A stretch of 64,000 nucleotides of DNA from Verrucomicrobiales bacterium (GTDB lineage: Bacteria > Verrucomicrobiota > Verrucomicrobiia > Methylacidiphilales > JAAUTS01): contig JAIRPN010000014.1 in NCBI GenBank assembly GCA_031256975.1, forward strand, positions 30,957-94,956, written 5' to 3'. The translations under genes and the position numbers were made by a program. Under the pieces are notes generated by a model, which was given only the letters and a program-made list of their open reading frames with translations, searched no databases and was not told where the DNA came from. This document shows positions 41,730 through 47,216 of the stretch, piece by piece (within the stretch, counting starts at the first letter, position 1; each line of letters begins with the position of its first letter).

Positions 41730-42428
41730 ATGAAGAAGCATATTTTGGTGGTGGAGGATGATTCGCATATCCGCATGGGTATCGTGGAAACCCTGTTGTC
41801 GGAAAACTTCGCGGTTAGCGAGGTGGGTGACGGACGGCAGGTGGCGGCGTTGGTGCGTGAACGGAAACCGGATTTGATTTTGCTGGATATCATGTTGCCG
41901 GGAAAAAGCGGTTATGATGTGTGCCGTGAGTTGCGGCAGAACAAGGTGCTGACGCCGGTCATTATGCTGACGGCCAAGGGGCAGGAAATCGACAAGGTGG
42001 TGGGCCTGGAGTTGGGTGCGGATGATTATGTGACCAAGCCGTTCGGGGTGCGTGAATTGGTGGCGCGGATCCAGGCGGTGTTGCGCCGGACGCAGGGCGC
42101 TAATGACGAAACCGGATTGGCGATTCCGAAGTCGATTGAATTCGGCAAGGTGAGGATCGACACGGCATCGTTGCGCGGGTGTCGCGGGAAAGAGGCGATG
42201 GAATTGTCACCGCGTGAGTTGAAAGTGCTGGCATTGTTATTTCAGGAACGGGGCAAGGTGGTGTCGCGGGATGCCTTGTTGAACAAAGTCTGGGGGATGG
42301 AATATTACGGAACCACGCGGACGCTGGACCAGGTGATTGTCAAATTACGCCAGAAGATCGAGGACAGACCGGAAGAGCCGAAACACTTGCAAACAGTGTA
42401 CGGAATGGGATATCGGCTGGATGTATGA
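41730..42428 (+). CDS. OmpR/PhoB-family response regulator
   Basis: 232 aa. Receiver domain (DD...D LILLDIMLPG...K) plus a winged-helix Trans_reg_C (LDQVIVKLRQKIE...VYGMGYRL). Confidence 0.9.
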   Translation: MKKHILVVEDDSHIRMGIVETLLSENFAVSEVGDGRQVAALVRERKPDLILLDIMLPGKSGYDVCRELRQNKVLTPVIMLTAKGQEIDKVVGLELGADDYVTKPFGVRELVARIQAVLRRTQGANDETGLAIPKSIEFGKVRIDTASLRGCRGKEAMELSPRELKVLALLFQERGKVVSRDALLNKVWGMEYYGTTRTLDQVIVKLRQKIEDRPEEPKHLQTVYGMGYRLDV

Positions 42429-42433
42429 ATTTG

Positions 42434-42465
42434 GCCGCTAATGGCGATTTCTCACCATTAGCGGC
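42434..42465. repeat. Perfect 11-bp inverted repeat (GCCGCTAATGG / CCATTAGCGGC) between convergent stop codons
   Basis: Left arm 42434-42444, loop CGATTTCTCA, right arm 42455-42465. Sits between the response-regulator stop (42428) and the ilvB stop (42474). Both arms are copies of the window-wide CGCTAAY motif. No flanking U-tract. Confidence 0.7.
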
Positions 42466-42473
42466 TCAATGGA

Positions 42474-44285
<1,812 letters not shown>

Positions 44286-44318
44286 TTTGGTTTTCAGTTT
44301 AACCGGAAGATCGGGGCA

Positions 44319-44351
44319 ATAAAAAACCCACGACCTGCTCAGCCGTGGGTT
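44319..44351 (-). terminator. Intrinsic terminator / attenuator hairpin in the ilvB leader
   Basis: The minus strand reads AACCCACG-GCTGAGCAGGT-CGTGGGTT followed by TTTTAT. The 8-bp stem is 44351-44344 / 44332-44325, giving a run of six T in total. It lies 34 nt upstream of the ilvB ATG. Confidence 0.7.
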
Positions 44352-44371
44352 GGAGATTGGTTGCTTTTTTA

Positions 44372-44452
44372 TCAGGCACAAAGCTCCACCGCGGCCGAGT
44401 CGCTAACGACGACTACCGATATGGTGACAAGCTGTACGAGTACCTGATTCAT
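44372..44452 (-). CDS. Putative ilv leader peptide (26 aa, Val/Leu/Ile-rich)
   Basis: Manual translation of the minus strand from the ATG at 44452 gives [26 protein letters not shown]. It has 8 Val, 3 Leu and 1 Ile, including a VVVV run, and ends 21 nt before the terminator stem. Confidence 0.55.
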
Positions 44453-44462
44453 TTAAAGCCTG

Positions 44463-44491
44463 ACTATATTACGATGGGAAAACCGTGTCAA
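44463..44491 (-). promoter_or_regulatory. Sigma70-like promoter for the ilvB leader
   Basis: The minus strand reads TTGACA (44491-44486), a 17-nt spacer, then TATAGT (44468-44463). It lies just downstream of the malic-enzyme stop. Confidence 0.5.
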
Positions 44492-44534
44492 ATCCTAAAG
44501 ATCACCGTTAGCGCTTCCGCTTGGCGAACTGGAA

Positions 44535-46196
44535 TCACAGGTAATCCTGATAGACCGGTTCAAACACCTGCGACTTGATGTCGGCGACCAGGTCCTTCGG
44601 GCGTTCACGCCGGGCCAAGCCCTTGTCATAGGCCTCCTCGGCGACTGCCGCCGCGATCTGGATCGAGATCGAACGGATCGAGTTGAGGTGTGGATAAATC
44701 CGGCCGTGGGCAAGATCGTCTTCGTTGACCTGTGCCGCCAAGGTTCTCGCCGCGGCAAGGAACATCGAGTCGGTCACGGTCGCGGACTGGCTGGCCAGTG
44801 CGCCAAGGCCGACACCGGGGAAGATGTAGACGTTGTTGCCTTGTCCGGGAACGAAGGTCTTGCCATTGTACTCCACCGGAGCGAAGGGGCTGCCGCTGGC
44901 GAAAACGGCCTTGCCCTTGGTGGCGAGATAGGCCTCCTCGGCGGTGCATTCGGCCTTGGAGGTGGGATTTGACAAGGCGAAGATAATCGGGCGTTCATTG
45001 TATGCCGCCATCTTTTCCAGGATATCCTTGGTGAAGGTCGGGCCGACACCCGCGACGCCGATGATCGCGGTGGGCTTGATTTGTTCCACCGCCTCGGCGA
45101 AGGTCTTGACGTATTTGCCGTCCTGCGCGAAGGCTTGCTTGTGCGCCGATAATTTGTCGCCGCGATTCTTGACTAGGAGTCCCTTGGAATCGACAAACCA
45201 GCAACGTTTGCGGGCGTCGGTCTCGGAAACTCCTTCTTCCCGGAGTGCGCTGACGAAATATTCACCAATGCCGGTGCCCGCTTCTCCCGCGCCGAAGAAC
45301 AACAGGGTCTGTTCCTTCAGGGGTTTGCCGGTTAGCCGTGTTGCCGAGATCAATCCGGCCAATGCCACCGCCGCGGTGCCCTGGATATCATCATTGAAGC
45401 AGCAGGCTTTGTTCTGGTATTTGTGCAGCAGGGAGAAAGCATTGTTGTTGCCGAAGTCTTCGAATTGCACCAGGGCTTTCGGAAACACTTCCTTCATCGC
45501 CTGCATGAATTCCTCGATGAATTCTTCATAAGCGGCACCGCGCACGCGTTTCTGTTGCAGGCCGATGTACAGCGGATCGCTGAGCAATTTCTCATTGTCG
45601 GTGCCGACATCGAGGCAGATCGGCAGGCAGTAATAGGGATGAATGCCGGCGCAGGCGGTGTACAAGGCCAGCTTGCCGATCGGGATGCCCATGCCGAGCG
45701 CGCCAAGGTCGCCAAGACCCAGGATGCGTTCGCCGTCGGTGACCACGATGATGCGGGCATCCTTGTTGGTCCAGTTGCGCAATACCTCGGCGATGCGGCC
45801 CTTGTCACGGATGTTGATCCACAAACCGCGCGGCTGGCGGAAAATGCTGCCGTATTCCAGGCAGGCTTCTCCCACGGTTGGGGTGTAGATGATTGGCATC
45901 ATCTCCTCGATATGATTGAGGAGCAGGCGGTAAAACAGGGTTTCGTTGCGGTTTTGCAGCGTGGTCAGGAAAATATATTTTTCCAGCGCGGAGTTTTTCC
46001 GGCGGAACTGGATCAGCGAGCGTTCCGCCTGTTCCTGCATGTTGAAAATGCGGGGCGGCAGCAGGCCGCGCAGGCGCAGGATGTCGCGTTCCCGTTCGGA
46101 GAAGGCGGTGAGCTTGTTCAACAAAGGGCTGTTGAGCAGTGACGCACCAGTGGGAAGATCCCGGCGCCCAAAAGGCAAGAGAGGGTCGTGATTCAT
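44535..46196 (-). CDS. NAD(P)-dependent malic enzyme (oxaloacetate-decarboxylating)
   Basis: 553 aa with a full-length malic enzyme architecture: N-terminal LLNKLTAFSERERD, IYTPTVGEAC, and dinucleotide fold FFGAGEAGTGIG. Confidence 0.9.
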   Translation of the reverse strand: MNHDPLLPFGRRDLPTGASLLNSPLLNKLTAFSERERDILRLRGLLPPRIFNMQEQAERSLIQFRRKNSALEKYIFLTTLQNRNETLFYRLLLNHIEEMMPIIYTPTVGEACLEYGSIFRQPRGLWINIRDKGRIAEVLRNWTNKDARIIVVTDGERILGLGDLGALGMGIPIGKLALYTACAGIHPYYCLPICLDVGTDNEKLLSDPLYIGLQQKRVRGAAYEEFIEEFMQAMKEVFPKALVQFEDFGNNNAFSLLHKYQNKACCFNDDIQGTAAVALAGLISATRLTGKPLKEQTLLFFGAGEAGTGIGEYFVSALREEGVSETDARKRCWFVDSKGLLVKNRGDKLSAHKQAFAQDGKYVKTFAEAVEQIKPTAIIGVAGVGPTFTKDILEKMAAYNERPIIFALSNPTSKAECTAEEAYLATKGKAVFASGSPFAPVEYNGKTFVPGQGNNVYIFPGVGLGALASQSATVTDSMFLAAARTLAAQVNEDDLAHGRIYPHLNSIRSISIQIAAAVAEEAYDKGLARRERPKDLVADIKSQVFEPVYQDYL

Positions 46197-46346
46197 GATA
46201 GTATAGAATCGTTTATTTTGGACTAATAATCAATCTTGCATTCAGGAAAACATTTAATAATAAGATTATCTTATCTATAAGGTTAGCGTGAAGGATGGTT
46301 TTATTTGCGTGCGTTTTGAAAATTACAAATTAAACATGATTCTCTT

Positions 46347-47216
46347 ATGCAGACACCACTTCGGATCGAGATCCCGCCTTTTCCTTATGGCAAAAGAATT
46401 GCCGTGACTCTGAGCTTTGATGACGGGCATACCTTTGACCGCCGGACAGTGGAGGCATTTAACCGCTGGGGTTTGAAAGCTACTTTCAACCTCAATTCCG
46501 GCACCCTGGGACGCAGCGGAATCAAGCCGGCCGACGGAGAATGGAAGCCGATTGATGCCAGCGAGGTGGCGGATTTGTATCGTGGGCATGAGGTTGCCAT
46601 CCATACCGTTTCCCACCCGTGGCTGCAAAAATTGGATGCCTCGCAGATTGCCACTGAGGTGCTTGAGGATCGCAAGGCGCTGGAAGATTTGGTTGGTTAC
46701 CCGGTGCGGGGAATGGCCTATCCCTTCGGGGGTTACAACCAGCAAGTCATTGATATTTTGCGCGGTTTGGGGGTGGTCTATTGCCGGACCGTAGAAAGCG
46801 CCGAATGGTGTTTCCCGCCAAAGGAGCCCCTGGCGTGGGCGGCGACAGCGCATCAATATGCCGAGAACCCAACCGTGCCGGAGCGTTTCGAGAAAATCTA
46901 CGCCAATGCCCGTTATAACGGTGTGTTTTTTATCTGGGGCCACAGCTTTGAATTTCACCAGCGCAACGACTGGGAGGGACTGGAGCGCATATTCAAGCCC
47001 TTATCCGGCAAGCCGGATGTCTGGTATTGCACGAATATCGAATTGTTCGACTACGAGGCAGCCCGGCGCCGGCTGGTTATCGCCGCCAACCGTAAAAGTG
47101 TCTGCAATCCAAGTGCCCTGCCCGTGGATATCAGTGTGGATGGCAAACTGATGGCCATTCCCGGTGGACAACTGGTTTCCTTGGCTGAAGAAGGAAGTGC
47201 CCCGGCTAGGACTTGA
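46347..47216 (+). CDS. Polysaccharide deacetylase (NodB-homology, CE4-like) family protein
   Basis: 289 aa with VTLSFDDGH...TFNL and HTVSHPWL motifs (the Asp-Asp and His-His metal/catalytic triads of CE4). Confidence 0.75.
   Translation: MQTPLRIEIPPFPYGKRIAVTLSFDDGHTFDRRTVEAFNRWGLKATFNLNSGTLGRSGIKPADGEWKPIDASEVADLYRGHEVAIHTVSHPWLQKLDASQIATEVLEDRKALEDLVGYPVRGMAYPFGGYNQQVIDILRGLGVVYCRTVESAEWCFPPKEPLAWAATAHQYAENPTVPERFEKIYANARYNGVFFIWGHSFEFHQRNDWEGLERIFKPLSGKPDVWYCTNIELFDYEAARRRLVIAANRKSVCNPSALPVDISVDGKLMAIPGGQLVSLAEEGSAPART

Follow-up and report, generated by a model that had tools for sequence, protein, structure and literature searches.

The gene ilvB, which encodes the large subunit of a biosynthetic acetolactate synthase (TIGR00118, E = 2e-219, with the profile starting at residue 21), is situated at 44285-42474 on the minus strand of the window, that is, of the whole stretch of 64,000 nucleotides analysed here. 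The gene is monocistronic: no ilvN or other ilv gene lies downstream, and at its 3' end it faces a convergent gene for a PhoB-like response regulator. The upstream neighbour, on the same strand, is a malic-enzyme gene (44535-46196, NF010052), whose stop is at 44535. Three candidate starts exist for ilvB, namely TTG 44381 (adopted in the ORF track), ATG 44285 and ATG 44225, at the last of which a database protein of 583 aa with 99% identity (P0002) has been annotated to begin. TTG 44381 lies in the 3' end of the leader ORF described below and reads through a terminator, and was rejected as an artefact of the ORF track; the doubt that the initial annotation had cast on this extension was thus borne out, and the conserved Lys-rich N-terminus points to ATG 44285. 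From this ATG, the protein gains a 20-residue Lys/Thr-rich N-terminal extension. A Met-initiated extension rich in Lys, Thr and Ser is common to the relatives across the phylum, though its sequence varies, and in L162 the second Met of the window ilvB (ATG 44225) is replaced by Leu. Because of these two features, ATG 44285 is the likely start. Gene callers either lengthen ilvB through the terminator (TTG 44381) or shorten it (ATG 44225), and the leader ORF is never called.

Upstream of ilvB, a leader ORF of 26 codons plus TGA was recognized at 44452-44372 of the minus strand (ATG at 44452, TGA at 44374-44372), both from the sequence and from homologous ORFs in relatives. Ahead of it, a consensus scan placed a promoter with the -35 box TTGACA at 44491-44486 (minus strand) and, after a 17-nt spacer, the -10 box TATAGT at 44468-44463 (minus strand), 10 nt before the leader ATG; this promoter is the sole 11/12 match to the sigma-70 consensus in the scan of 42000-47000. 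With the transcription start placed about 7 nt past the -10 box, as predicted from the position of the box, the leader transcript is likely to be leaderless or to have a 5' UTR of about 0-3 nt. The leader ORF is followed by an intrinsic terminator hairpin, AACCCACGGCU/GAGCA/GGUCGUGGGUU (44351-44325, minus strand), which has 11 pairs and then the tail TTTTATT; the T-run (TTTTTTATT) occupies 44326-44318 on the same strand, its first two T being also the last two bases of the stem. The hairpin has an energy of -17.5 kcal/mol, ends about 35 nt ahead of the ilvB ATG, and is by far the strongest terminator listed in a terminator scan of 42000-47000. Past the hairpin, the hexamer TAAACT (44301-44296, minus strand) lies 10 nt ahead of the ilvB ATG, just as the leader -10 box does with respect to its own ATG, and has no good -35 box; it could be a weak internal promoter for basal, leaderless expression of ilvB.

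Relatives were collected by ilvB-based scans of genome and metagenome collections, giving 160 loci. A scan for a mini-ORF rich in branched-chain amino acids (BCAA) and then a terminator yielded four loci whose terminator is almost the same as that of the window (L006, which belongs to Verrucomicrobia subdivision 3, L010, L082 and L090), and three more loci with the cassette (L168, L169 and L170) came from contigs looked up after searching proteins with the L082 ilvB. The leader peptides at these seven loci are MLKNVTLTVILVVAVVGSDAVGVS (L006), MLKRRELVLAVRLLVPGPAGGSSCA (L010), MLMNALAVLVGSVAVVAADGHAAGTCRA (L090), MRENIRQIALVLVVVVGDAVGACRE (L082), MSKNARQVVLGVVVVGDAVGACRP (L168), MSEIIRQVGLLVVVVVGGAVGACRV (L169) and MLEIRQVALVVVVVVGDAVGACRR (L170). 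The initial annotation had described the TTGACA-17 nt-TATAGT promoter (44491-44463), an ATG close to the predicted transcription start, a 26-codon ORF with 12 Val, Leu or Ile residues including four consecutive Val, and a terminator hidden in the ORF-track extension of ilvB. All of these were confirmed in the window, and the two promoter boxes, the near-leaderless spacing, homologous ORFs, and a nearly identical terminator are also found at the seven other loci. At the eight cassette loci together, TTGAC is invariant (the full -35 box being TTGAC followed by A, C or G), and a TAnnnT -10 box lies 7-10 nt ahead of every leader ATG, with a promoter spacer of 16-18 nt. Because the -10 box is so near the ATG, there is no room for a Shine-Dalgarno sequence. 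The terminator is almost invariant across the eight loci, with G-C/G-U changes only and no double-sided changes.

Several features of the leader ORF suggest that it is translated. The relatives' ORFs are homologous and 24-28 codons long, and the stop codon falls in the same alignment column (cols 85-87) in 8/8 sequences. The eight-sequence alignment (A3) keeps in register the ATG, the Val run (cols 43-57), an invariant GCCG (cols 64-67), the stop and the terminator. Gaps within the leader ORF are of 3, 6, 9 or 12 nt, whereas those after the stop are of 1, 2 or 5 nt, the pattern expected of a translated frame. The N-terminal half of the peptide diverges among loci, but the Val run is kept. The elements of the leader are also unlikely to be a product of chance. 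In the window, Val, Leu or Ile account for 12 of the 26 residues, VVVV among them; across its six frames, the window has 783 ORFs of 10-50 codons that begin with ATG, and VVVV occurs in only two of them. Moreover, a mini-ORF with at least five Val, Leu or Ile within a seven-residue stretch precedes just one of the 12 strict terminators in the window, namely that of the ilvB leader.

For the 147-nt leader, the folding energy is -51.1 kcal/mol (z = -3.46), which none of 200 shuffles equalled. Folding and the alignment together delimited two strands of a putative antiterminator: region 2, its 5' strand (UCGGCCG-C-GG-UGGAG, 44398-44384, minus strand), which holds the invariant GCCG (44394-44391), and region 3 (CUCCA-AC-CC-A-CGGCUGA, 44355-44339, minus strand), which is common to the antiterminator and the terminator. 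In the window, folding pairs these two strands at -22.3 kcal/mol. The conserved core of this helix is GCCG..GG (44394-44389) with CC.CGGC (44348-44342) of the terminator 5' arm; the GCCG:CGGC pairs are present in 8/8 loci, and the two G:C pairs that follow occur in 8/8 and 7/8, respectively. An upper helix, formed by cols 75-82 with 96-103 of A3, encloses the stop codon. The initial annotation had proposed an antiterminator made of GGUGGAG and CUCCAACC; this pairing is indeed the inner part of the folded helix, but it lies outside the conserved core GCCG..GG:CC.CGGC, which had been missed. The CUCCA partner strand sits in a 5-nt insertion unique to the window genome, and the relatives have a better upper helix instead. 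Mutually exclusive terminator and antiterminator folds, for which the annotation had suggested looking, were found by folding as alternative pairings of the shared region 3.

In the untranslated leader, the MFE and centroid structures contain a long hairpin (44448-44371, minus strand) that would act as an anti-antiterminator, and RNAalifold gives an equivalent. In it, CGGU pairs with GCCG, AGUCGU with GCGACU, and AUCAGGUAC with GUGCCUGAU, and an outer stem of 9 bp joins codons 2-5 to the stop-codon region. When RNAalifold was run on the eight sequences without a supplied structure, it predicted a region 1:2 hairpin sequestering GCCG, the upper helix, and the terminator. Helix 1:2 was judged by per-sequence folds and RNAalifold; since its pairing register differs between sequences, column-wise pair counts were not used. 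No conserved structure beyond the three competing helices was recognized in the cassette alignment.

For the other two helices, pairing was counted column by column. Terminator pairing is satisfied in 97.7% of cells across the eight loci, as against 30-55% with the partner strand shifted by 1-3 columns, and antiterminator pairing in 88.3%, as against 28-47%. The terminator and the antiterminator core are invariant, and so neither carries covariation. Two compensatory pairs occur in the antiterminator upper helix, 79-99 (CG to UA or the reverse) and 81-97 (AU to CG or UG and the reverse), and the covariation score of the antiterminator was reached by none of 500 shuffles. These covariation and pairing statistics come from eight sequences, four of which are close relatives, and are accordingly weak.

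The effect of a ribosome was simulated by masking a stretch of 28 nt around every A-site position in turn. Folding the full leader to equilibrium with this mask alone was rejected: the terminator wins almost everywhere, the 5' tail being free to pair across the ribosome. Two other versions were used, one with the RNA up to the end of region 3, as it stands before the 3' arm of the terminator (region 4) has been made, and the other with the full leader and everything 5' of the ribosome masked too. In the former, applied to five sequences, the antiterminator forms as long as the A site has not passed codon 14-16 or thereabouts (the limit varies by sequence), and region 2 releases the terminator 5' arm once the ribosome goes further or reaches the stop. 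In the latter, the probabilities of antiterminator and terminator in the window were 0.54 and 0.43 with the A site at Ile11, 0.89 and 0.10 at Ser12, 0.86 and 0.13 at Val13, and 0.41 and 0.55 at Val14, and from Val15 onward the antiterminator fell to 0.00 with the terminator at 0.92 or more. The masked folding thus marks Ile11-Ser12-Val13-Val14-Val15-Val16 (ATA TCG GTA GTC GTC GTT, 44422-44405, minus strand) as the putative control codons, and the same stretch is region 1, the 5' strand of the anti-antiterminator. For the seven relatives, whose terminators are stronger (-20.6 to -23.2 kcal/mol), the full-leader version put the terminator ahead at nearly every ribosome position, with a probability of at least 0.59, and the core antiterminator pairs at no more than 0.14. 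Since the terminator wins at equilibrium in these relatives, the switch there would have to be kinetic; in classical attenuators, too, the choice between terminator and antiterminator is a kinetic one. L082 is a weak point of the simple model, because its antiterminator is favoured even without a ribosome when the RNA is folded to region 3, with region 4 absent.

Codon usage was compared with frequencies taken over the 29 long ORFs of the window. Upstream of region 2, BCAA codons of the commonest type are avoided, namely GTG (46% of Val), CTG and TTG (40% and 30% of Leu, respectively) and ATC (63% of Ile); the rare BCAA codons of the leader are GTA, used three times (7% of the window Val codons), and ATA, used once (5.5%), plus CTT and CTC. 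As RNA pairing constrains the same codons, this usage is taken as supportive evidence only. In two biofilter metagenomes (runs X2 and X3), a near-identical strain has T>C at 44422, by which ATA becomes GTA (Ile11Val), as its sole leader difference; together with C>T at 44259, in the N-terminal extension of ilvB, this makes up all of the differences over the 361 nt compared.

In short, the computational analysis found a BCAA-rich ORF, a terminator before ilvB, an antiterminator using the terminator 5' arm, and a 1:2 helix over the control codons. From this sequence and comparative evidence, the locus very probably harbors a real and conserved ribosome-mediated (leader-peptide) transcription attenuator of ilvB, for which we infer the start site, leader translation, premature termination and amino-acid response. 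Such an attenuator would couple ilvB transcription to charged tRNA-Val and, to a lesser extent, to tRNA-Ile and tRNA-Leu. The transcript would start at the leader AUG or no more than about 3 nt from it, and a 70S ribosome would load on the leaderless mRNA. When BCAA are sufficient, the ribosome would reach the stop and cover region 2 (GCCG..GGUGGAG), the terminator would fold, and RNA polymerase would stop at about 44320. When BCAA are limiting, the ribosome would stall at Ile11-Val14 and cover region 1, leaving region 2 free to pair with the terminator 5' arm once this has been made; the terminator would then be blocked, and polymerase would read into ilvB. If no ribosome loads, region 1 would pair with region 2, the long hairpin would also occlude the 5' end, and the terminator would form. 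Since no ilvN follows ilvB in the window, and the genes of L168-L170 are likewise monocistronic with neither ilvN nor ilvC after them, the attenuator would control the large subunit alone.

The best of the rival explanations, itself improbable, accepts the switch but has it set by a metabolite-binding RNA, a T-box-like sensor of uncharged tRNA or an RNA-binding protein, the ORF being incidental. In its favour, the RNA helices are conserved, and translation of the ORF is a prediction. However, a search of the 4227 families of Rfam 15 gave no relevant match in the window at E <= 10 and none in 11 related loci at E <= 1, and the three competing helices are all of the conserved structure. In addition, the spacing of promoter and ATG is fixed, indels preserve the frame up to a stop column shared by all eight sequences, and the Val run persists beside a diverging N-terminal half.

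It is even less likely that the hairpin is a plain terminator of the malic-enzyme gene (44535-46196), with a mini-ORF that arose by chance and an ilvB promoter downstream of the terminator. The hairpin is the first terminator past the malic-enzyme stop (44535) and probably ends that transcript too, and the weak -10-like TAAACT is available 10 nt ahead of the ilvB ATG. However, TAAACT lacks a -35 box and is absent from the promoter scan list, and an 11/12 promoter firing straight into a terminator is sensible only if termination is conditional. Furthermore, the promoter-ORF-terminator cassette precedes ilvB at seven loci where the genes on its 5' side are different, encoding a PATR-repeat protein, a divergent glycosyltransferase, a small unknown gene product and others, which ties the cassette to ilvB rather than to its upstream neighbour. 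Least credible of all is that the mini-ORF encodes a small hydrophobic peptide with its own function, such as a membrane peptide, followed by its ordinary terminator. In favour of this are the hydrophobic character of the peptide and a conserved C-terminal half, VVVVG[D/S]...A.G.C, but these conserved residues are encoded by exactly the region 1 and 2 nucleotides (GUCGUCGU, GGCGAC and GCCGNNGG), so that the constraint is explicable at the RNA level, the cassette is always directly upstream of ilvB, and a peptide of 24-28 residues with charged or small residues at its end is not a typical transmembrane peptide.

The leader-peptide attenuator proposed here resembles, as known from textbooks, the ivbL-ilvBN and ilvL-ilvGMEDA leaders of E. 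coli in having a short leader ORF in which Val, Leu and Ile codons form runs, in its three competing helices (1:2, 2:3 and 3:4) with the stop codon in or beside region 2, and in its intrinsic terminator just ahead of the acetolactate synthase gene. The likeness to the enterobacterial ilvBN and ilvGMEDA leaders drawn in the initial annotation is thus supported by the leader ORF, the terminator and the competing helices. This situation is different from that of E. coli in that the sequences are dissimilar, the window leader ORF has no room for a Shine-Dalgarno sequence, and ilvB alone is regulated. Another parallel is the leader of Corynebacterium glutamicum ilvBNC, IlvL (MTIIRLVVVTARRLP; the 'ilvB-II motif'), with which the window has in common Val-run control codons, a three-hairpin model and, if the start predicted in the window is right, a leaderless leader (PMC11857589; PMC10272879). 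In C. glutamicum, the leader AUG is 1 nt away from the transcription start, and the 5' end is occluded by the first hairpin (PMC11857589); Val-to-Ala changes in the leader abolish the valine response, as summarized in PMC11857589 with reference to Morbach 2000. The two differ in that C. glutamicum belongs to another phylum, its peptide and RNA are unrelated, and its leader, which extends over about 290 nt where that of the window has about 170 nt, governs an operon of three genes.

The ilvB-OMG and Leptospira ilvB RNA motifs of the Breaker laboratory, which have been re-read as BCAA-rich uORFs (PMC10272879, section 14), are similar in being conserved elements upstream of ilvB with an in-frame start and stop and many BCAA codons; these are proposed attenuators. 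The cassette, which matched no Rfam 15 family, may be a sequence family separate from these motifs. In the literature searched, we could not find any description of leader-peptide attenuation in Verrucomicrobia or Planctomycetes, in agreement with the remark of the initial annotation that it is not known to have been characterised in PVC-type bacteria, or any study of leaderless translation in Verrucomicrobia. Although the mechanism itself is well known, its occurrence in Verrucomicrobiota is one for which no published example was found; if the attenuator is real, classical leader-peptide attenuation, including the leaderless form known from Corynebacterium, extends to this phylum. The conserved distance of 7-10 nt from the -10 box to the ATG could also be used to test leaderless translation and transcription-translation coupling in the phylum. 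A search for RNA runs containing the window sequence found none, and metatranscriptome contigs aligned on L082 represent the conserved ilvB coding sequence of other organisms only, and none of them lies over the leader.

The distribution of the cassette does not follow that of the closest ilvB genes. In a tree of 59 PVC-type ilvB proteins, the seven other cassette loci form one clade (100/99), together with L085, for which there is no upstream DNA, whereas the window ilvB nests in another clade (100/99) with L001 and L161-L167, all of which are without the cassette. At these eight loci, where ilvB is 68-79% identical to that of the window, neither a BCAA leader nor an attenuator-type terminator was found upstream of ilvB. 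L001 has two weak hairpins there, with no Val/Leu/Ile-rich ORF ahead of either, and in L161-L167 ilvB is divergent from rplM-rpsI, with a spacer of 130-180 nt. Conservation of mini-ORFs before ilvB in related genomes, which the initial annotation had suggested searching for, was therefore seen in the homologous cassette at seven other loci but not in the eight closest ilvB relatives sampled. It follows that the cassette is not essential for ilvB control in this lineage. On the rplM side of the L161-L167 spacers, a GTCAACG motif is present in six of the seven loci, and L167 has GTCAAT.

Recombination inside ilvB was considered as a source of the shared cassette and rejected, since the protein is nearer to its own clade in every 50-residue window; this means that only the regulatory cassette is shared. 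Judged from these sequences, the patchy distribution would reflect either about five independent losses or transfer of the cassette alone. It may be tentatively suggested, as a rather doubtful reading, that the cassettes of promoter, leader ORF and terminator, each about 180 nt long, make up a leaderless, valine-sensing family specific to Verrucomicrobiota and have been gained or lost as a unit independently of ilvB, and that the window genome received the cassette alone from a subdivision-3-like lineage, because its ilvB nests among relatives that all lack it. That clades with ilvB genes not most closely related to each other share a cassette is relevant to how small regulatory modules move. 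One of the cassette loci, L010 (CAZJEH010000134.1), is on a contig labelled as a Gemmatimonas sp. MAG, and its ilvB with the cassette falls inside the Verrucomicrobia subdivision-3-like clade (100/100 with L006 and L085). This contig is probably mis-binned; otherwise, gene and cassette have been transferred.

BCAA leader ORFs unrelated to this family were also recognized before ilvB in other phyla, for example in Actinobacteria (...ILVVLGRRAG), a Bryobacterales MAG, Latescibacterota (MTHQITTSHIAITTAVVGRVVVLVPM) and Arcobacter. The leader of the Bryobacterales MAG (L063) and those of similar soil-metagenome contigs form a family ending in ...IIILVIVSGPA. Four of the unrelated leaders (L013, L125, L128 and L133) gave no Rfam family match. 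The presence of unrelated BCAA leaders in several phyla indicates that the general design is widespread, and in most of the loci concerned (L063, L117, L125, L126, L128, L129, L153, L013, L056 and L133), the exceptions being L056 and L063, the leader is followed by a T-run.
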